A DNA stretch of 39,924 bases from an uncultured Enterobacteriaceae bacterium (GTDB lineage Bacteria > Pseudomonadota > Gammaproteobacteria > Eutrophobiales > Eutrophobiaceae): NCBI GenBank assembly GCA_964576645.1, contig CAZNWR010000002.1:1-39924 (forward strand), in the 5' to 3' direction. This document shows, in pieces, positions 9,464 through 37,961 of the stretch (within the stretch, counting starts at the first letter, position 1; each line of letters starts with the position of its first letter). The position numbers and the translations under genes are program-made. Under the pieces are notes generated by a model. It ran no database searches. It was not told the DNA's origin and saw only the letters and a program-made list of their open reading frames with translations.

Positions 9464-10252
9464 ATGCATCCAATATTGAATATCGGCATCCGTGCGGCGC
9501 GCAGCGCGGGCGACCTGATCGTGCGTTACATGGATCGCCTGAGCGGCATTCCCGTGACGAGCAAGGGCAGAAATGACTTTGTGTCCCAGGTCGACCGCGA
9601 AGCGGAAAGCACGATCATCGACGTCATCAGAAAGGCCTATCCGTCCCATGCGATACTGGCCGAAGAAAGCGGTGCCCACGGACAGGACGATTTCGTGTGG
9701 ATCATCGACCCGCTGGACGGGACCACCAATTTTCTCCATGGATTTCCACAATTTGCCGTGTCCATCGGGGTCCAGAACCGCGGCCTGATGGAGCAGGCAG
9801 TCGTGTACGACCCGTTACGCCAGGAACTGTTCACGGCATCCCGCGGCAACGGCGCTCAACTGAACAACCGCCGTATCCGCGTGAGCCGGACGCCGGGGCT
9901 GGAGGGTGCCCTGCTGGGCACCGGCTTTCCGTTTCGAAGCCAGGAACACCTGGACCGCTACCTGAATATGTTCCGCATGTTCCTGCAGGAAACCGCCGGC
10001 GTCCGCCGAGCCGGTGCAGCCGCGCTGGACCTGGCCTATGTCGCCTGCGGACGCCTGGACGGATTCTGGGAGCTGGGTCTCAAACCCTGGGACATCGCCG
10101 CCGGCATGCTGCTGGTGCGGGAGGCCGGCGGCATGATAAGCGATCTGGACGGCATTGCCGATTGCCTGCAGACGGGCAATGTCCTGGCAGCCAATCCAGG
10201 GGTATACAAGGCGATGCTCAAATGTCTTGTCGCATGCGATGGCCGCAGCTAG
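9464..10252 (+). CDS. suhB: Inositol monophosphatase family protein SuhB
   Basis: 262 aa. It carries the IMPase motifs ILAEESG and WIIDPLDGTTNFLHGFPQFAVSIG. Confidence 0.9.
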   Translation: MHPILNIGIRAARSAGDLIVRYMDRLSGIPVTSKGRNDFVSQVDREAESTIIDVIRKAYPSHAILAEESGAHGQDDFVWIIDPLDGTTNFLHGFPQFAVSIGVQNRGLMEQAVVYDPLRQELFTASRGNGAQLNNRRIRVSRTPGLEGALLGTGFPFRSQEHLDRYLNMFRMFLQETAGVRRAGAAALDLAYVACGRLDGFWELGLKPWDIAAGMLLVREAGGMISDLDGIADCLQTGNVLAANPGVYKAMLKCLVACDGRS

Positions 10253-10260
10253 CTTATCCC

Positions 10261-10428
10261 GCTGTTTCGTTATGCGATACACATGGCCAGGGGCATTACG
10301 GTAGCCGGATGACGGACACGCTGTGAATACATCCATGTACGCTCAATCGCCGCATCCCCGCGGCTCACGATCCATCATCCGGCCACCGCAACGCCCTTTT
10401 TATTTCGGAATTTCGAACGTCTATCCAA
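10261..10428. repeat. Dispersed structured intergenic repeat, copy A (~167 nt)
   Basis: About 78-80% identical by hand alignment, same orientation, to 36261-36429. It contains a 12-bp stem (10301-10312 / 10375-10386) enclosing a small hairpin GCCGC-N6-GCGGC. Confidence 0.6.
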
Positions 10429-10450
10429 ACAAACTGACATTTTTCTTCTT

Positions 10451-11437
10451 TTGAGTTCCACTTCCCTGTCAAAGTCTGTTCTGGTCACCGGCGGCGCCGG
10501 CTACGTGGGCAGCCACGCCTGCAAAGCGCTGCACGCGGCCGGCTACAAGCCCATATGCTACGACAATCTCTGCCGGGGCCACGCGGACGCCGCCCGCTGG
10601 GGCCCGCTGGTAACCGGGGACCTCCTGGACACCGCCGCGCTGGACGCGGTCTTCGAGCAGTACAGGCCGGAAACCGTGATGCACTTTGCCGCTCTCACCT
10701 ACGTCGGTGAATCGGTTTCCGATCCCCTCGCGTACTTCCGGACGAACGTCGGCGGCAGCGTGAGCCTGCTGGAGGCGATGCGCCGCCATTCAGTCACCAG
10801 ACTGGTGTTTTCCAGCAGTTGCGCGGTTTACGGTGTCCCCGACCAGGTGCCCATCAGCGAGACTGCGCCCTGCCGGCCCGTGAGCCCCTATGGCTGGACC
10901 AAGTATGTGGTGGAAACCGTTCTGGCACAGCACGCCCAGGCCTCCGGACTCCGGTACATCTCACTGCGCTATTTCAATGCCGCCGGGGCCGATATCGATG
11001 GAGATCTGGGCGAGCGTCATGATCCCGAGACCCACCTGATTCCACTGGTTCTCGAAGCCGCGGCGGGTAAGCGCGATCAAATCGAAATCTACGGTGACGA
11101 CTACGATACGCCGGACGGCACCTGCATCCGTGATTACGTTCACGTCAATGATATAGCCGAGGCCCACGTGCTGGCGCTGCGCAGGCTGGAACAGGGCGGC
11201 TCAACCACCACTTACAACGTCGGGACCGACCATGGATTTTCGGTCAGCGAGATTATTGCCCGCGCCGAGGCGGTGAGCGGATGCAAAGTGCCGGTGACGA
11301 CGGTAGCGCGGCGGCCCGGCGACGCCCCTTCCCTGGTTTCCGATGCAGCGCGCATACGCAATGATCTTGGCTGGTTACCAAAGCATTCAGACCTGGACCG
11401 TATCCTGGCCAGCGCATGGGCCTGGCATAGGCGCTGA
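10451..11437 (+). CDS. galE: UDP-glucose 4-epimerase
   Basis: 328 aa. VLVTGGAGYVGSH Rossmann motif, SSSCAVYG, catalytic PYGWTK (YxxxK) and RYFNAAGA. TTG at 10451 is the only plausible start before the GxxGxxG motif. Confidence 0.85.
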   Translation: MSSTSLSKSVLVTGGAGYVGSHACKALHAAGYKPICYDNLCRGHADAARWGPLVTGDLLDTAALDAVFEQYRPETVMHFAALTYVGESVSDPLAYFRTNVGGSVSLLEAMRRHSVTRLVFSSSCAVYGVPDQVPISETAPCRPVSPYGWTKYVVETVLAQHAQASGLRYISLRYFNAAGADIDGDLGERHDPETHLIPLVLEAAAGKRDQIEIYGDDYDTPDGTCIRDYVHVNDIAEAHVLALRRLEQGGSTTTYNVGTDHGFSVSEIIARAEAVSGCKVPVTTVARRPGDAPSLVSDAARIRNDLGWLPKHSDLDRILASAWAWHRR

Positions 11438-19280: not shown

Positions 19281-21113
19281 TCAAAGTTTACGGGCGCCGT
19301 TGCGCGCGGCAACTGTCCTCCGCATTGCAAACCGTAGAAGTATGCCAAACGCCAGCAGAAACGACGCGAGGCTCAGGTAATCGGCGAGACGCTGCCACCA
19401 GGGAATCGCAAACGGAAATTTTCGGTAGTGGGTAAATGCCAGCACGTCATTGCGCTGGTCCATGCGGAAATGATCACCCGGCCGGCATTGGTTGGACTTG
19501 CCGAACACGTAGCAGGCCGGATTGAACATCGCCACTTGGCCCGTTCGCGGATTCACGACCGGTCCGAGACGTACTTCGCGACGGGGGAACGTTTCCAGTC
19601 TGTACCCGAATATGGGCTGGTAGCAGGGCACCGGACTGGTCCCGTCGACAAAGCGGTCGTTCAGTGCCCTGCCGATCTGGTCAAAGGGCTGCTTTACACG
19701 CGTAACGGGCGGAACGTCCCCGCTCTTCCGTACACTGAAGTAACTGCGCGTGACCGGGCGCGGATCGTAGAGCAGAACACGGTTCGGCACCACATAACCC
19801 TGGAGGTTGACGGCGACAACTCCCGCGATCCCGGCGGCTGCAAGCCCTGACCTGAGCGCTGCTGAATCGACCCTGTCCAACACCATGGCCGAAATCAGAA
19901 TAACGACCGGAATGTCCGCGGCGATCCAGCGCAGGAACAGGAAGGTGCTCTCCAGGTATGGCAACTTTTTGAACAGCGCATCCAGACCGGGACTATGAAT
20001 GTTCATGATCACCGGCAACAGACATACCCCAACCAGGATCGCCAGCCGCAGCAGTGTAAATGCGCTGAGCCGGATCCGGCGCGTATCTCCTGCGCCGTGT
20101 CGCACCGCCAGCACCATTACCGCCGCCAGAAACACAAATACCGGCGCCGGCGTCACGCTGTACTGAAACTCGTGGAGTTCCACGAAATAGTTGGTGTGCA
20201 CAATCAGCCCGGGACGCGGAATGTAAGTACCTGCTGAAAACAGCGAATGCAGGACCACCAGGAAGGAGGTCCTGAAGTCCCTGAAACCCGGCACCGGGTA
20301 CAGGTCCCGGGGGAAGTGCGAGAGGAAAGCCATGGCCGGGACCAGCTTGAAGGCGGCCAGGCACAGGCTGAATGTCACGGCAGCCGCAAAGCACGGCCAG
20401 AAAGCGGTACGGCGCCCGCCGTGCAGCTCCGCCAGAACCCATATCCCCACCACACCCAGAAGTGACGGCCCGTAAATCACCGCACCACCCGACAGCAGCA
20501 GGTACGCCAGCATCAGCGCCGCCAACACCGCCCCCGCAACGGCTTTCCACATACGGAACCGATCCCCGGCGGGCAGCGGCGACAGCAGGCAAAGTGCAAT
20601 CGCGGGCACCAGCATGAAGGAATGAAACGTCAGGTGACCCGCCAGCATGCGATTGATATAGAAACTGTTGAACAGAAAACACGCGGCCGCAAACAGGGAC
20701 GTCGCCAGAGAGAGGTGAAAGCGGATCCGGCACAGCGCAAAAAAACCCCAGAAACCGGCCGCGGCGAACAGCACCACCGTCAGAAAGACGCTGCTCCGAG
20801 GGTCGGCCAGCAGCGTCAGGACCTGCGGTACCGAGTAGTAGAGATTCTGGGGATTCGGCACGAACGGCAGGCCCGCGCAAATGGCCGGCGTGAACCAGGG
20901 CACGGCCCAGGGACCGTTGTGCAGAAACCAGAAATACCCATTGAGCAGCGCCGGTAGAAAATACCCAAAATCCGCAGCCAGATAGTGTTCGGCAGGGGCG
21001 ATATATAGATGCGTGTTGTATATGAAGACCAACAGCAATATGAGGAATACAAACAGGCAGGTGGCCAAAGGCAGTTGTGGATCCGCCAGGATCGTGGGCC
21101 GGTCAATTTTCAT
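19281..21113 (-). CDS. Unclassified polytopic membrane protein (about 12 TM + periplasmic domain + terminal TM), tandem copy 1
   Basis: 610 aa. Codons ~48-583 are nucleotide-identical to the adjacent gene. The motif DFGYFLPALLNGYFWFLHNGPWAVPWFTPAICAGLPFVPNPQN follows TM1. I recognised no family motif, so the GT-C-like call rests on architecture and context only. Confidence 0.7.
   Translation of the reverse strand: MKIDRPTILADPQLPLATCLFVFLILLLVFIYNTHLYIAPAEHYLAADFGYFLPALLNGYFWFLHNGPWAVPWFTPAICAGLPFVPNPQNLYYSVPQVLTLLADPRSSVFLTVVLFAAAGFWGFFALCRIRFHLSLATSLFAAACFLFNSFYINRMLAGHLTFHSFMLVPAIALCLLSPLPAGDRFRMWKAVAGAVLAALMLAYLLLSGGAVIYGPSLLGVVGIWVLAELHGGRRTAFWPCFAAAVTFSLCLAAFKLVPAMAFLSHFPRDLYPVPGFRDFRTSFLVVLHSLFSAGTYIPRPGLIVHTNYFVELHEFQYSVTPAPVFVFLAAVMVLAVRHGAGDTRRIRLSAFTLLRLAILVGVCLLPVIMNIHSPGLDALFKKLPYLESTFLFLRWIAADIPVVILISAMVLDRVDSAALRSGLAAAGIAGVVAVNLQGYVVPNRVLLYDPRPVTRSYFSVRKSGDVPPVTRVKQPFDQIGRALNDRFVDGTSPVPCYQPIFGYRLETFPRREVRLGPVVNPRTGQVAMFNPACYVFGKSNQCRPGDHFRMDQRNDVLAFTHYRKFPFAIPWWQRLADYLSLASFLLAFGILLRFAMRRTVAARNGARKL
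19366..20974. repeat. Tandem direct repeat, unit 1 (1609 nt, apparently 100% identical to 21220-22828)
   Basis: Offset is 1854 nt. All nested six-frame ORFs translate identically in the two units. I checked the boundaries base by base (mismatches at 19365/21219 and 20975/22829). Confidence 0.9.
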
Positions 21114-21140: not shown

Positions 21141-22967
21141 CTAACCGGTGCTATGCTTCGCGTTGCTTGCTGCGCGTCGTAAAACCAAGAGCAGTACAGT
21201 AAACGCGAGCGCAAATGAAGCGAGGCTCAGGTAATCGGCGAGACGCTGCCACCAGGGAATCGCAAACGGAAATTTTCGGTAGTGGGTAAATGCCAGCACG
21301 TCATTGCGCTGGTCCATGCGGAAATGATCACCCGGCCGGCATTGGTTGGACTTGCCGAACACGTAGCAGGCCGGATTGAACATCGCCACTTGGCCCGTTC
21401 GCGGATTCACGACCGGTCCGAGACGTACTTCGCGACGGGGGAACGTTTCCAGTCTGTACCCGAATATGGGCTGGTAGCAGGGCACCGGACTGGTCCCGTC
21501 GACAAAGCGGTCGTTCAGTGCCCTGCCGATCTGGTCAAAGGGCTGCTTTACACGCGTAACGGGCGGAACGTCCCCGCTCTTCCGTACACTGAAGTAACTG
21601 CGCGTGACCGGGCGCGGATCGTAGAGCAGAACACGGTTCGGCACCACATAACCCTGGAGGTTGACGGCGACAACTCCCGCGATCCCGGCGGCTGCAAGCC
21701 CTGACCTGAGCGCTGCTGAATCGACCCTGTCCAACACCATGGCCGAAATCAGAATAACGACCGGAATGTCCGCGGCGATCCAGCGCAGGAACAGGAAGGT
21801 GCTCTCCAGGTATGGCAACTTTTTGAACAGCGCATCCAGACCGGGACTATGAATGTTCATGATCACCGGCAACAGACATACCCCAACCAGGATCGCCAGC
21901 CGCAGCAGTGTAAATGCGCTGAGCCGGATCCGGCGCGTATCTCCTGCGCCGTGTCGCACCGCCAGCACCATTACCGCCGCCAGAAACACAAATACCGGCG
22001 CCGGCGTCACGCTGTACTGAAACTCGTGGAGTTCCACGAAATAGTTGGTGTGCACAATCAGCCCGGGACGCGGAATGTAAGTACCTGCTGAAAACAGCGA
22101 ATGCAGGACCACCAGGAAGGAGGTCCTGAAGTCCCTGAAACCCGGCACCGGGTACAGGTCCCGGGGGAAGTGCGAGAGGAAAGCCATGGCCGGGACCAGC
22201 TTGAAGGCGGCCAGGCACAGGCTGAATGTCACGGCAGCCGCAAAGCACGGCCAGAAAGCGGTACGGCGCCCGCCGTGCAGCTCCGCCAGAACCCATATCC
22301 CCACCACACCCAGAAGTGACGGCCCGTAAATCACCGCACCACCCGACAGCAGCAGGTACGCCAGCATCAGCGCCGCCAACACCGCCCCCGCAACGGCTTT
22401 CCACATACGGAACCGATCCCCGGCGGGCAGCGGCGACAGCAGGCAAAGTGCAATCGCGGGCACCAGCATGAAGGAATGAAACGTCAGGTGACCCGCCAGC
22501 ATGCGATTGATATAGAAACTGTTGAACAGAAAACACGCGGCCGCAAACAGGGACGTCGCCAGAGAGAGGTGAAAGCGGATCCGGCACAGCGCAAAAAAAC
22601 CCCAGAAACCGGCCGCGGCGAACAGCACCACCGTCAGAAAGACGCTGCTCCGAGGGTCGGCCAGCAGCGTCAGGACCTGCGGTACCGAGTAGTAGAGATT
22701 CTGGGGATTCGGCACGAACGGCAGGCCCGCGCAAATGGCCGGCGTGAACCAGGGCACGGCCCAGGGACCGTTGTGCAGAAACCAGAAATACCCATTGAGC
22801 AGCGCCGGTAGAAAATACCCAAAATCCGTGCCAAGTTTGGGTGTCGACGAGGACAGGTACCAATGGACATTGTTAACGAATACGCCCATGAGCACGATAA
22901 ACACAAGGAGGCAGATCGCGGCCGGCAGTTTCCAACCCCGCCGGACAATGAAGCGGGGGACAACCAT
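21141..22967 (-). CDS. Unclassified polytopic membrane protein, tandem copy 2
   Basis: 608 aa from ATG 22967. I chose this start because MVVPRFIVRRGWKLPAAICLLVFIVLMGVF aligns with the copy 1 N-terminus and lies exactly one repeat period (1854 nt) from the copy 1 start. The ORF-track start at 23126 would add a Cys-rich 53-aa extension. Confidence 0.65.
   Translation of the reverse strand: MVVPRFIVRRGWKLPAAICLLVFIVLMGVFVNNVHWYLSSSTPKLGTDFGYFLPALLNGYFWFLHNGPWAVPWFTPAICAGLPFVPNPQNLYYSVPQVLTLLADPRSSVFLTVVLFAAAGFWGFFALCRIRFHLSLATSLFAAACFLFNSFYINRMLAGHLTFHSFMLVPAIALCLLSPLPAGDRFRMWKAVAGAVLAALMLAYLLLSGGAVIYGPSLLGVVGIWVLAELHGGRRTAFWPCFAAAVTFSLCLAAFKLVPAMAFLSHFPRDLYPVPGFRDFRTSFLVVLHSLFSAGTYIPRPGLIVHTNYFVELHEFQYSVTPAPVFVFLAAVMVLAVRHGAGDTRRIRLSAFTLLRLAILVGVCLLPVIMNIHSPGLDALFKKLPYLESTFLFLRWIAADIPVVILISAMVLDRVDSAALRSGLAAAGIAGVVAVNLQGYVVPNRVLLYDPRPVTRSYFSVRKSGDVPPVTRVKQPFDQIGRALNDRFVDGTSPVPCYQPIFGYRLETFPRREVRLGPVVNPRTGQVAMFNPACYVFGKSNQCRPGDHFRMDQRNDVLAFTHYRKFPFAIPWWQRLADYLSLASFALAFTVLLLVLRRAASNAKHSTG
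21220..22828. repeat. Tandem direct repeat, unit 2
   Basis: See unit 1. Confidence 0.9.
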
Positions 22968-35486: not shown

Positions 35487-36242
35487 ATGCCCAACACCCC
35501 GGACACATCGTGCTGGATTGACGCCGACTGGCCCGCCCCGGCGAATATCCACGCCGGCGTCACCACGCGGCTGGGGGGGTGCAGCCGGACCCCGTTCGAC
35601 TCATTCAACCTGGCGGCCCACGTGGGCGACGACCCGAACGCAGTCGAGCGCAACCGCGCCGCACTGCGCCGCCGCCTGAGCCTGCCCGCGGAACCGCACT
35701 GGCTGCAGCAGGTGCACGGCACTGCGATCCGGGATGCATCGGAAACCGGGAGTCCGTGCGCGGACGCCACCTGGGCTGACCGTCCGGGAGAAGTGTGCGC
35801 GGTGCTGACCGCCGATTGTGTTCCGATTCTGCTGTGTAACCGGTCCGGCACGGAAATCGCCGCCGTCCACGCCGGCTGGCGTGGATTGAGCGGCGGCATA
35901 ATCGCGAAAGCGGCCGCCCGCTTTCGGGCCGAACCAGGCATGTTGCTTGCCTGGCTGGGGCCCCATATCGGCCCCGCTCATTATCGGGTGGGGGACGACG
36001 TAAGAAACGCCTGCCTCACTGCCAGTGCCGCGGCGTCCGCCGGATTTACCGACGCCGGCGCCGACCACTGGTTCGCGGACCTCGGTTACCTGGTTCGCTC
36101 GGCACTGGCCGAATGTGGCGTAACCGCTTGTTTTGCCAGCCCTCATTGCTGTTTCAGCCGCGACGAGCTGTATTACTCCTATCGGCGCGATCGGGTTACC
36201 GGCCGCATGGCCAGCCTTATCTGGATGGAAGGGCGTTCATAA
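35487..36242 (+). CDS. pgeF: YfiH/PgeF family (peptidoglycan editing factor / laccase-domain protein)
   Basis: 251 aa. CADATWADRPGEVCAVLTADCVPILL ... AAVHAGWRG. It lies downstream of rluD, as in E. coli. Confidence 0.85.
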   Translation: MPNTPDTSCWIDADWPAPANIHAGVTTRLGGCSRTPFDSFNLAAHVGDDPNAVERNRAALRRRLSLPAEPHWLQQVHGTAIRDASETGSPCADATWADRPGEVCAVLTADCVPILLCNRSGTEIAAVHAGWRGLSGGIIAKAAARFRAEPGMLLAWLGPHIGPAHYRVGDDVRNACLTASAAASAGFTDAGADHWFADLGYLVRSALAECGVTACFASPHCCFSRDELYYSYRRDRVTGRMASLIWMEGRS

Positions 36243-36260
36243 GAAGATTAATCTAATATG

Positions 36261-36429
36261 GCTGTTCCGAAACGTGATACACACGGTTAGGGGCGTTACG
36301 GTATCCGGGTGACGGACATGCTGTGAAGACTTCCCTGTACGCTCGATCGCCGCGTCCCTGCGGCCCACGGCCCATTACCCGGATACCGCCGCGACACCGT
36401 TTGTTTCAGAATTCCGAACACCTATCTGG
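36261..36429. repeat. Dispersed structured intergenic repeat, copy B
   Basis: Homologous to 10261-10428. The 12-bp stem 36301-36312 / 36375-36386 carries compensatory substitutions relative to copy A. Confidence 0.6.
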
Positions 36430-36527
36430 ATGCTTCAGATGGCCGGCGGCTAGTTTAATTGGCGCCGGATTGCACTTGGGTCATCGTCCGGAACGGATAT
36501 GACCGGGGATCCACGGGGGAGATCACA

Positions 36528-37961
36528 ATGCCGAACAAACAAAACAAGCACCACAAGCACCTTTCCTTCAGCCAGAGCGTCGACCGAATGGCTGACCGCG
36601 CGCTGGAGGTGCTGGACATGGATCCGGGGGTAGCAAACGCCATCAAGGCCTGTGAATCGATCATCCAGGTGAACTTTCCCGTCAGCCTGGAAGGCAAAAT
36701 ACACGTATTTACCGGCTGGCGGGCGGTTCACAGCACACACCGGCTGCCGGCCAAGGGCGGTATCCGTTACGCGCCCATAGTCAACCAGGACGAGGTCACG
36801 GCACTGGCGGCGCTGATGACCTACAAGTGCGCCATCGTCGACGTGCCTTTCGGCGGCTCCAAGGGCGGGCTGCTGATCGAGCCGTCCAAACATTCCCGCG
36901 AACACATGCAAATCATTACCAGGCGCTTTGCACGGGAGCTGATCCGCAAGGACTTCCTGAGTCCGTCCACCAACGTGCCGGCGCCGGACATGGGCACCGG
37001 CGAGCGGGAAATGGCCTGGATCGCCGACACCTTCAAGCAACTGCACCCGGAAAACATGAACTACGCCGCCTGCGTGACGGGCAAACCGATTCACCACGGC
37101 GGCATACGCGGCCGCACCGAGGCCACCGGCCGCGGCGTCGTCTATGTCATGCGTGAGTTTTTCCGGCACGGTCCGGACGTGAAAGCAGCGGGACTGGACG
37201 GCGGCCTGGGCGGCAAGACCATAGTCATCCAGGGACTGGGCAACGTCGGTTACCACGCGGCGAAACTGCTGGATGAGGAAGACGACGCCAAGATCATCGC
37301 CATCGTCGAACGCGACGGCGCGCTGGTGAACCAGGACGGCATCTCCGTCCAGCGCGTGCGCGAATACATCAACTCCCAAAAGACCATACGCGGATTTCCC
37401 GATGCTGAATTCACGGAAAACGGCGCCGGCGTTCTGGAAATGAACTGCGACATACTCATTCCTGCCGCAATGGAAGCCCAGATAACCGCCGAAAACGCTC
37501 CCAGGATCAACTGCAAGCTGATAATCGAGGCAGCCAACGGTCCGGTTACCTATGAGGCCGACGAGATCCTCCGTCAGCGCGGTATAACCATCTTGCCGGA
37601 TGCCTACGTCAATGCCGGTGGCGTTACGGTGTCCTACTTCGAGTGGATACGGAACCTGTCTCACATCAGGTTCGGGCGCATGCAGCGGCGTTACGATGAA
37701 ATGCACGGCCAACACCTTATCAGCGCAATGGAGACTCTGAGCCAGAAGAACGTGCCTGACTGGATGCGCGCTGAAATTATTCATGGCGCCGATGAACTCG
37801 ATCTGGTGCGATCCGGTCTGGACGACACCATGCGCAACGCCTTTCAGGAAATCAGTGAAGTGCGCCATTCCAACGACAAGATCGACGACTATCGTACCGC
37901 CGCCTACGTGGTTGCAATCAATAAGATTGCCCGCTCGTACTTTGATATCGGGGTGTACTAG
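36528..37961 (+). CDS. gdh: Glutamate dehydrogenase (Glu/Leu/Phe/Val dehydrogenase family)
   Basis: 477 aa from ATG 36528 (RBS GGGGGAG upstream). LPAKGGIRYAP and VPFGGSKGG form the catalytic Lys region, and IQGLGNVGYHAA is the Rossmann motif. The ORF-track start at 36459 is less likely. Confidence 0.85.
   Translation: MPNKQNKHHKHLSFSQSVDRMADRALEVLDMDPGVANAIKACESIIQVNFPVSLEGKIHVFTGWRAVHSTHRLPAKGGIRYAPIVNQDEVTALAALMTYKCAIVDVPFGGSKGGLLIEPSKHSREHMQIITRRFARELIRKDFLSPSTNVPAPDMGTGEREMAWIADTFKQLHPENMNYAACVTGKPIHHGGIRGRTEATGRGVVYVMREFFRHGPDVKAAGLDGGLGGKTIVIQGLGNVGYHAAKLLDEEDDAKIIAIVERDGALVNQDGISVQRVREYINSQKTIRGFPDAEFTENGAGVLEMNCDILIPAAMEAQITAENAPRINCKLIIEAANGPVTYEADEILRQRGITILPDAYVNAGGVTVSYFEWIRNLSHIRFGRMQRRYDEMHGQHLISAMETLSQKNVPDWMRAEIIHGADELDLVRSGLDDTMRNAFQEISEVRHSNDKIDDYRTAAYVVAINKIARSYFDIGVY

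Follow-up and report, generated by a model that had tools for sequence, protein, structure and literature searches.

Why should two intergenic stretches of one small region, lying upstream of unrelated genes, share both sequence and a foldable palindrome? The question arose at positions 10261-10428 and 36261-36429 (copies A and B) of a 39,924-nt stretch of contig CAZNWR010000002.1 from an uncultured Enterobacteriaceae bacterium, which was analysed at its full length and is referred to as the window. A sequence-only reading had described a dispersed ~167-nt repeat and had left three options: REP/MITE-like DNA, a small RNA, or a 5' leader shared by galE and gdh. Both sequences belong to a mobile DNA repeat family with a nested-palindrome structure, of which they are moderately decayed copies. 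This family is abundant, scattered through approximately a quarter of the sampled genera of Gammaproteobacteria, and apparently undescribed.

Copy number and host range

Copies A and B matched the covariance model of the family at E 1e-18 and 2e-16, respectively, far beyond chance, and ranked 35th and 43rd among the matches in their own genome: 85.0 and 76.5 bits, versus ~105 bits for the best match. The assembly of this genome (G000; 2.85 Mb, 317 contigs, 60.8% GC) is 93% complete, and it contained far more than the two copies that had been noticed in the window. A profile of the core (nhmmer) found 95 places, 25 of them abutting contig ends, and the covariance model found 74 matches; the range of 74-95 copies (covariance model and nhmmer, respectively) is an at-least figure. 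Two subfamilies with different arms occurred side by side in this genome.

When an even sample of Gammaproteobacteria was searched with the covariance model (R1), the family was detected in 73 of 300 genomes, representing 69 of 271 genera, and all 13 positive genomes of a phylum sample belonged to this class. Hosts among the matches listed were Marinobacter, Microbulbifer, Halomonas, Pseudomonas/Halopseudomonas, Sedimenticola, Alishewanella, Luteimonas, Thiogranum, Acidiferrobacterales, and others, and a 29-nt pattern of the core was found at more than 117 loci among these listed matches. Two complete Marinobacter chromosomes yielded ~100 matches each, from 150 scored of ~1,200 candidates. The distribution in the window's own taxonomic family was patchy (6 of 19 genera). 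No match was found on plasmids, in phages or in 5,426 genomes of E. coli. The comparison with described RNA families, which the sequence-only reading had named as a check, was also negative: Rfam 15 gave no match at the gathering score for the whole window, and nothing relevant even at E<=10 for positions 10200-10500 on both strands. In the searchable literature, the motif was found on neither strand, and no description was retrieved by keyword.

Architecture and covariation

The element consists of a short conserved core enclosed by a long helix of free sequence. On the plus strand of the window, the core of ~56 nt reads GGAC ACGC(T/C/G)GTGAATAC-NTCCNT-GTA(C/G)GCT-[P2]-GTCC, where P2 is a variable stem capped by the loop (A/G)TCC(A/C)T. 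The second hairpin of the core, P3, was revealed by divergent core subtypes at one Marinobacter locus; it is composed of GC(N)/(N)GC, a five-base bulge and (T/C)AC/GT(A/G), and carries the same hexaloop as P2. Around both lies the clamp helix P1, with a median ungapped length of 30 bp, the arms of which are unrelated in sequence between copies, even within one genome. This module is 116 nt long, and the full element in the window's genome (~170 nt) has two additional wings of unequal length. The wings around the module are lineage-specific, and those in the window's genome bear the terminal boxes TAGATAG(A/C)TGTTCCGAA and their complement.

All three helices covary strongly. When 91 distinct copies from many genera were aligned with MAFFT, pairing was found in 87.8% of cells, versus 55.9% after shuffling and 32-43% with slid partners, and 36 of 42 pairs had changed on both sides. 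An independent alignment of 109 matches from loci outside model building, which was fitted to the covariance model, gave similar values: 88.9% paired versus 57.8% shuffled, and two-sided changes in 45 of 47 pairs. Every pair of P2 covaries in the family, and the upper stem of P3 was U-A in 55 and C-G in 42 sequences and unpaired in none. RNAalifold on the unfitted alignment recovered P1 and P2, but paired the P3 region differently. The stem columns of the 91-sequence alignment contained all four Watson-Crick pair types, and the loops and the junction were invariant; the core was identical at no fewer than 26 specified bases across orders, with the arms and flanks wholly diverged. The earlier view of a structured repeat family, with a stem kept by two-sided changes, is thus supported by covariation at the level of the family.

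A protein-coding core (G-H-A-V-N-T-S-L-Y-A, with the variable sites at codon positions 3, 3, and 1) was considered and rejected, because the arms are unrelated between copies, many copies contain immediate stops, and just three sites vary. The element as a whole has no conserved reading frame, since its arms vary and stop codons occur.

Variation within the core was also observed. The third pair of the lower stem of P3 (window 10322/10340, core N1/N4) is T.C in the commonest subtype and C-G, G-C, or T-A in others, and subtypes with T.C or with paired N1/N4 were found together in many genera. In three copies of the window's genome (C118:6170-6374, C74:4771-4971, and C160:4449-4648), ATCC after GTGAATAC is replaced by an extra domain of ~105 nt, which bears a hairpin of its own with the same hexaloop (GTTCGCC-GTCCCT-GGCGAAC). 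Other insertions occur at P2 in further genomes (L110, L113, and L115).

Strand on which the hairpin is selected

The hairpin is selected on one fixed strand, with the loops C[ANGGAN]G, whatever the direction of the neighbouring gene. Wobble pairs were counted in the inner clamp only, after removal of near-duplicate arms. On the written strand, A.C was more frequent than G.T in all three data sets: Marinobacter (57:13, p 1e-7), cross-genus (82:35, p 2e-5), and the window's own genome (49:21, p 1e-3). Since A.C on the written strand is G.U (or G.T) on the other, the hairpin is kept stable on the opposite strand. A count of non-Watson-Crick pairs that included the frayed outer stem was nearly symmetric (76 vs 106), and G.U pairs were rare overall, most stems being near-perfect. 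Within one operon, copies on the two strands gave similar ratios of A.C to G.T (31:6 and 26:4), with both arms contributing; therefore, the asymmetry is intrinsic, and not a by-product of the direction of genes or replication. A G.T wobble had previously been taken to favour an RNA of the plus strand; this is contradicted by the 2.3- to 4.4-fold excess of A.C over G.T in the three data sets.

In the loop logo, the hexaloops of the selected strand are closed by a C-G pair and have an invariant A1, a variable N2, invariant G3, G4, and A5, and Y6. The GGA-to-GGA distance between the two hexaloops, read from the sequence, is ~23 nt.

Mobility and rearrangement

The element, arms included, is gained and lost as one unit, and it amplifies in bursts (~75-95 copies in the window's genome). 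In the spacer between the acyl-CoA dehydrogenase and enoyl-CoA hydratase genes of Marinobacter, the empty version, found in several species, is 11-25 nt long and contains neither arm, and the filled version (~150 nt) contains the arms and core. The arms therefore come with the insert. Entry into pre-existing palindromes, which was considered as a candidate route, is ruled out by these arm-free orthologous sites, and no clean "empty frames" were found in the window's own genome.

Derivatives that retain the arms and have lost the core by deletion were found at L198 (G087:C1:371220-371540) and in the window's genome at C32:5777 (GAATTTGCGGGCGG..CCGCCCGCAAATTC; GTTGCGCTATCCGG and ATACCGCAAC), and at L188 (G059:C1:1473340-1473560) the outer boundary motifs alone remain (TTTGGTGTA and CGGACAACG). 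Head-to-tail arrays had periods of 120 nt (L035 and L130) and 227 nt, the latter in an array of six copies (L202 1788-3152; G662:C1:94287-95651). Orthologous sites with and without the element, its amplification in bursts, the arrays, and the deletion derivatives together identify the family as mobile DNA. It also shares the traits of MITEs, being short, non-coding, and multi-copy, with inverted repeats at its ends and with orthologous sites that are polymorphic for its presence. The earlier option of REP/MITE-like DNA is therefore retained as far as mobile DNA is concerned, while membership in REP families of the RAYT type is ruled out, as described below. In the six-copy array, every unit contains a classic GTAG-type REP (GTAGGAGCGGCTTCAGCCGCGA) and, on the UCC strand, a terminator-like hairpin with a T-run, in addition to the module.

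The core has also changed its orientation within the element. Distances between the terminal boxes and the module, measured in the frame of the core, were exactly (14,7) in six copies and (7,14) in eight copies of the window's genome. An asymmetric core that occurs both ways round in one asymmetric shell must have been inverted between its own ~30-bp clamp arms at least once. C8:22059-22174 and C181:5113-5228 are an example of a pair with opposed core orientations in this genome.

Close pairs of copies (start-to-start <=400 nt) in the two Marinobacter chromosomes were tail-to-tail in 12 of 12 cases (~6e-8 by chance). In the sense of the UCC strand, these pairs run plus and then minus with their P2 sides face to face, and the other three arrangements did not occur (examples: G034:C1:115740-116000, G034:C1:189415-189701, and G031:C1:1453282-1453555). 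By symmetry, a transcript through such a pair would contain the UCC module first and the GGA module second, with mutually complementary loops.

A cluster of Marinobacter genes for acyl-CoA dehydrogenase, enoyl-CoA hydratase, and biotin carboxylase (L158-L182; fatty-acid/leucine catabolism) carries 3-5 copies per 4 kb in each species, with one copy in nearly every spacer, a density far above the genome average. At these sites, the orientation in each spacer is conserved across species, but the arms and core subtype differ between species, which suggests wing-guided replacement or conversion, or repeated insertion at the same site.

The two copies in the window

Copy A as a full-length element (10261-10428), delimited by its 79% alignment with copy B and by the wing anatomy of the family, is composed of a long wing, the P1-P3-P2-P1' module, and a short wing. 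It is located between the stop codon (10250-10252) of a suhB-like gene (Inositol_P/SuhB-like; 9464-10252) and the start, at 10451, of a galE-like gene (Epimerase/GalE-like; 10451-11437), with the UCC loops on the written (plus) strand and the GGA loops on the minus strand. In the covariance-model match (10286-10401, 85.0 bits, E 1.2e-18), the low-coordinate arm of P1 (10286-10317, minus strand) pairs with the high-coordinate arm (10370-10401, minus strand), which was also delimited by the fold; A.C mismatches of this helix on the plus strand, such as 10303/10384 and 10298/10389, are G.U on the minus strand. Hairpin P3 (10320-10342, minus strand) is formed by GCT/CGC, a GTGAA bulge, and TAC/GTA, with the hexaloop at 10331-10336 (ATCCAT, corresponding to AUGGAU on the minus strand). 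Hairpin P2 (10344-10369, minus strand) has its stem at 10349-10353/10360-10364 and its hexaloop at 10354-10359 (ATCCCC); this loop is GGGGAU on the minus strand, in which the otherwise invariant first A is mutated.

Copy B (36261-36429) is arranged as copy A, between the stop codon (36240-36242) of a yfiH-like gene (Cu-oxidase_4/YfiH; 35487-36242) and the gdh open reading frame (ELFV dehydrogenase/Gdh; 36459-37961), and the module is separated from its terminal TGTTCCGAA-type boxes by 14 and 10 nt. The arms of P1, at 36286-36317 and 36370-36401 (minus strand), pair with each other in the covariance-model match (36286-36401, 76.5 bits, E 2.1e-16). Hairpin P3 (36320-36342, minus strand; hexaloop TTCCCT at 36331-36336), read against the family logo, is degenerate, its upper stem being broken by GAAGAC in place of GAATAC. 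Hairpin P2 (36344-36369, minus strand) has its stem at 36349-36353/36360-36364, and its hexaloop at 36354-36359 (GTCCCT) is AGGGAC on the minus strand, which agrees with the consensus.

The predicted fold of copy A was -68.6 kcal/mol (z -7.4) on the minus strand versus -49.3 kcal/mol (z -5.3) on the plus strand. Copy B gave z-scores of only -2.6 and -1.9 and is too decayed to tell the strands apart, which is consistent with a decayed copy. As to the local claims of the sequence-only reading, the two stretches are indeed colinear and on the same strand (79% mean column identity), and the four flanking genes (suhB, galE, yfiH, and gdh) are those that it named. The 12-bp stem that it described is present in both copies as the middle part of the longer clamp helix of ~27-30 bp, and its inner hairpin, GCCGC-N6-GCGGC, is conserved at 10349-10364 and 36349-36364.

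Gene context

Of the 30 copies in the window's own genome that could be classified, none was located in a divergent spacer, versus a background of 25%, and 13 copies were located in convergent spacers, versus a background of 22%. The element avoids promoter-bearing divergent spacers. When copies in tandem-gene spacers were sorted by orientation, the mRNA strand carried the UCC loops in 27 and the GGA loops in 32. Such random orientation relative to genes does not fit a dedicated 5' leader, and the proposal of a 5' leader shared by galE and gdh fails on the occurrence of both orientations between tandem genes as well as of copies between convergent genes. The flanks of the element yielded neither a conserved promoter nor a conserved terminator, and no promoter-like site was found. 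In ten Marinobacter species, one copy lies in the GGA orientation ~30 nt upstream of the start codon of a carboxylase gene.

Possible mode of action

The family is probably a class-wide mobile nested-palindrome repeat that acts as a folded single strand of fixed polarity. This degree of confidence covers the demonstrated parts and the single-strand hairpin reading together, and does not extend to the choice between DNA and RNA. In such a mechanism, a conserved trans-acting protein would read the two identical hexaloops, and the long clamp would merely guarantee their presentation. The folding may take place on single-stranded DNA during the element's own propagation, where the candidate reader would be an enzyme with a logic of the REP/IS200 or attC type. 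Of the possible modes of action, this is the one we prefer, at slightly below an even chance in our own analysis.

Several results weigh against propagation by such an enzyme. The Y1_Tnp domain (PF01797) was absent from three genomes with at least 54, 11, and 17 copies (G000, G005, and G015, respectively). No transposase recurred among the genes bracketed between two copies or among 906 proteins encoded nearby, all of which were ordinary housekeeping or metabolic paralogues. The orientation of copies does not switch along the two complete chromosomes, unlike that of elements dependent on single-stranded DNA of the lagging strand. Among 37 full-length copies, the ends of which are blurred by the terminal palindrome, the flanking sequences gave no consistent direct repeat that would indicate a target-site duplication. 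At a given orthologous site, the orientation was conserved across Marinobacter species (22/22 and 10/10), which hints at a local function or at wing-guided replacement. Finally, loops that are invariant across orders imply an equally conserved reader, a role that a host protein such as the global regulator CsrA fits more easily than a transposase of unknown type.

Two further observations concern the mobilising enzyme. PF01797 was present in many genomes without the element, and a RAYT/Y1 transposase was rejected as the mobiliser, since it is absent from element-rich genomes. No parent insertion sequence was found among the bracketed genes or the 906 neighbours, a combination of element ends and transposase not having been searched for genome-wide.

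The principal alternative, which is possible but on balance unlikely, is that the element is a CsrA/RsmA-binding RNA: the clamp of a GGA-strand transcript would present the two hexaloops, which would be bridged by one dimer. Copies in untranslated regions would recruit or titrate CsrA, flipped copies would show UCC loops, and all of this would be compatible with mobile DNA. The optimal RsmE/CsrA site is (A/U)CANGGANG(U/A) (PMC6849547), and high-affinity CsrA sites are apical hexaloops containing CANGGANG, two adjacent ones of which bind one dimer with an optimal spacing of ~18 nt (PMC4894983). On the strand opposite GGACACGC..., both hexaloops of the family are C[A-N-G-G-A-Y]G, so that the loop logo matches this motif and varies only at its two N positions. 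This match, recognised after the fact, is a strong lead and not a finding. The third hairpin in the three-copy variant has the same loop, wobbles are tolerated on exactly the GGA strand, and the carboxylase copy of the ten Marinobacter species is GGA-oriented upstream of a start codon. CsrA (PF02599) was found in 26 of 31 relatives with or without the element, including the positive G005, G008, and G015, and its conserved specificity would account for the invariance of the loops across orders.

On the other hand, the orientation of copies to genes is unbiased (27 vs 32), and copies lying GGA-antisense show the same asymmetry as the others (31:6); therefore, the selection cannot come from co-transcription with host genes. 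The flanks contain no conserved promoter or terminator, a terminator-like hairpin was located on the UCC strand in the one tandem array examined, Rfam gave no match to CsrB or RsmX/Y/Z, and no csrA was found in the window's own 93%-complete assembly. The motif match was also recognised post hoc.

A stronger form of this alternative, which we consider rather more doubtful, is a transposable, self-folding module of post-transcriptional control, planting a high-affinity two-site CsrA/RsmA platform, or in the flipped orientation an antisense, into the operons of Gammaproteobacteria. If this were true, inversion of the core between the clamp arms would switch a transcript between platform and antisense, and at least 100 copies per genome could form a distributed CsrA sponge where no Csr/Rsm sponge RNA is known.

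Improbable, in our judgement, is a neutral origin, in which palindromes without any reader would carry a recently spread core, with stems perfected by template-switch correction of quasipalindromes. The rarity of G.U, the near-perfect state of most stems, and orthologous copies that differ in their arms yet remain complementary are all in keeping with such correction. However, at least 26 specified bases of the core are identical across orders where the arms and flanks have fully diverged, the loops are invariant exactly at the would-be protein contact positions and variable elsewhere, and strand-asymmetric mismatches are not expected from a strand-neutral correction.

The last two explanations are both very unlikely. 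A REP/REPIN family moved by RAYT would agree with extragenic, palindromic, high-copy elements whose close pairs are always inverted, as in BIMEs and REPINs (PMC2817692), and copy A happens to contain GTAGCCGGATG, but Y1_Tnp is missing from G000, G005, and G015, there is no GT(A/G)G head, the conservation is reversed, and the unit is 116-170 rather than 20-35 nt. A plus-strand RNA (5' leader or small RNA) acting on galE or gdh would suit the position of both window copies, upstream of and co-oriented with a gene, and the single plus-strand G.T pair in copy B, but is opposed by at least 74-95 copies in every gene context (13 of them between convergent genes), by the family-wide wobble tolerance of the other strand, by the ~19 kcal/mol better fold of copy A on the minus strand, and by the lack of a promoter-like site.

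Relation to known systems

Interspersed palindromic repeats are known as a kind, with REP, ERIC, and Correia elements as examples, and their mobilisation and function are largely open questions. What is new here, as judged from Rfam 15 and the searchable literature, is the combination of an invariant two-hexaloop core in a clamp of free sequence, a class-wide spread, and no RAYT.

Similar to the REP, BIME, and REPIN elements of Enterobacteria, Pseudomonas, and Xanthomonadales (Nunvar et al. 2010, PMC2817692), the family is extragenic and palindromic, has tens to hundreds of copies in both orientations, keeps its palindromy by paired changes, forms inverted close pairs, and shares with them a proposed action on one folded strand. 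The absence of RAYT from element-rich genomes excludes membership in the REP/RAYT system as defined in the same paper (PMC2817692). The family also differs by the lack of a conserved GT(A/G)G head and by its unit of 116-170 nt, compared with 20-35 nt. The pattern of conservation is reversed: in REPs, the stems are conserved and differ between genera, whereas here the loops and junction do not vary across orders and the stem sequence is unconstrained.

In Neisseria, the Correia elements (CREE/NEMIS), like other bacterial MITEs, are non-coding, ~100-170 bp long, and bounded by terminal inverted repeats, and they do not carry a transposase of their own. Correia elements are intergenic and co-transcribed either way, their long hairpin is a potential RNase III substrate, and their inverted repeats have a conserved sequence and a TA duplication. 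The family resembles Correia elements and MITEs in its build, but is unrelated in sequence; its arms differ in each copy, no duplication is definable, and what is conserved is an internal core of two hairpins, found class-wide.

The bacterial ERIC (IRU) sequences are intergenic imperfect palindromes of 127 bp from Enterobacteria and Vibrio, which are transcribed either way and whose means of mobilisation is unknown. The present family is of similar size and likewise occurs in Gammaproteobacteria, but it has another core and another host range, with no match in the 5,426 E. coli genomes.

The attC site is also a folded single strand of fixed polarity with a conserved structure, a variable stem, and unpaired identity bases. 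It occurs in one-directional cassette arrays beside intI and has R and L boxes (GTTRRRY), in contrast to the present elements, which are dispersed among housekeeping genes in both orientations around an invariant 56-nt core. No GTTRRRY boxes were conserved in the alignment, intI itself not having been searched for. The loop YATCC(C/A)TG may also resemble a nic site of MOBP type; no relaxase context was seen.

The tandem hairpins with CANGGANG apical hexaloops resemble the Csr/Rsm sponge RNAs (CsrB/C and RsmX/Y/Z) and the flaA leader of C. jejuni, and the spacing of ~23 nt between the GGA motifs is near the 18-21 nt reported for dimer bridging (PMC4894983). Each of those RNAs is encoded by a single-copy gene or leader that has a promoter and a terminator of its own, whereas the present family is a dispersed repeat with a 30-bp clamp, no detected promoter, no orientation bias, and no Rfam match.

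Implications

A 56-nt core that is invariant throughout a class, with only the clamp free, directs the search to a single conserved reader protein, and the selected strand of such an element can be read directly from its mismatch spectrum. The loops match the RNA-binding motif that is best defined in Gammaproteobacteria. If CsrA were the reader, a mobile element would be rewiring a global regulon; if the reader were an enzyme, the family would represent a new system of single-strand transposition or recombination without RAYT. In practical terms, the element breaks short-read assemblies (25 contig ends of the window's own genome lie inside a copy), and an entry in Rfam or Dfam would stop the family from being taken for a locus-specific regulatory RNA.

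Other repeats

A second, unrelated repeat family (...GGCAGGACCCGTCCGCCA...TTCACGAATAATCC...) occurs at ~80-175 places in the window's genome, for example at C8:7679-7760 and on C19 and C32, and often abuts the module (C8:7429, C134:7857, and C57:7639). This genome is unusually repeat-rich, which accounts for its 317 contigs. Within the window itself, a stretch of at least 130 nt (GAACGACCGCTTTGTCGACGGGACCAGTCCGG...) occurs twice in identical form, at ~19,500-19,650 and ~21,350-21,500 on the minus strand and ~1.85 kb apart, which looks like a local duplication.

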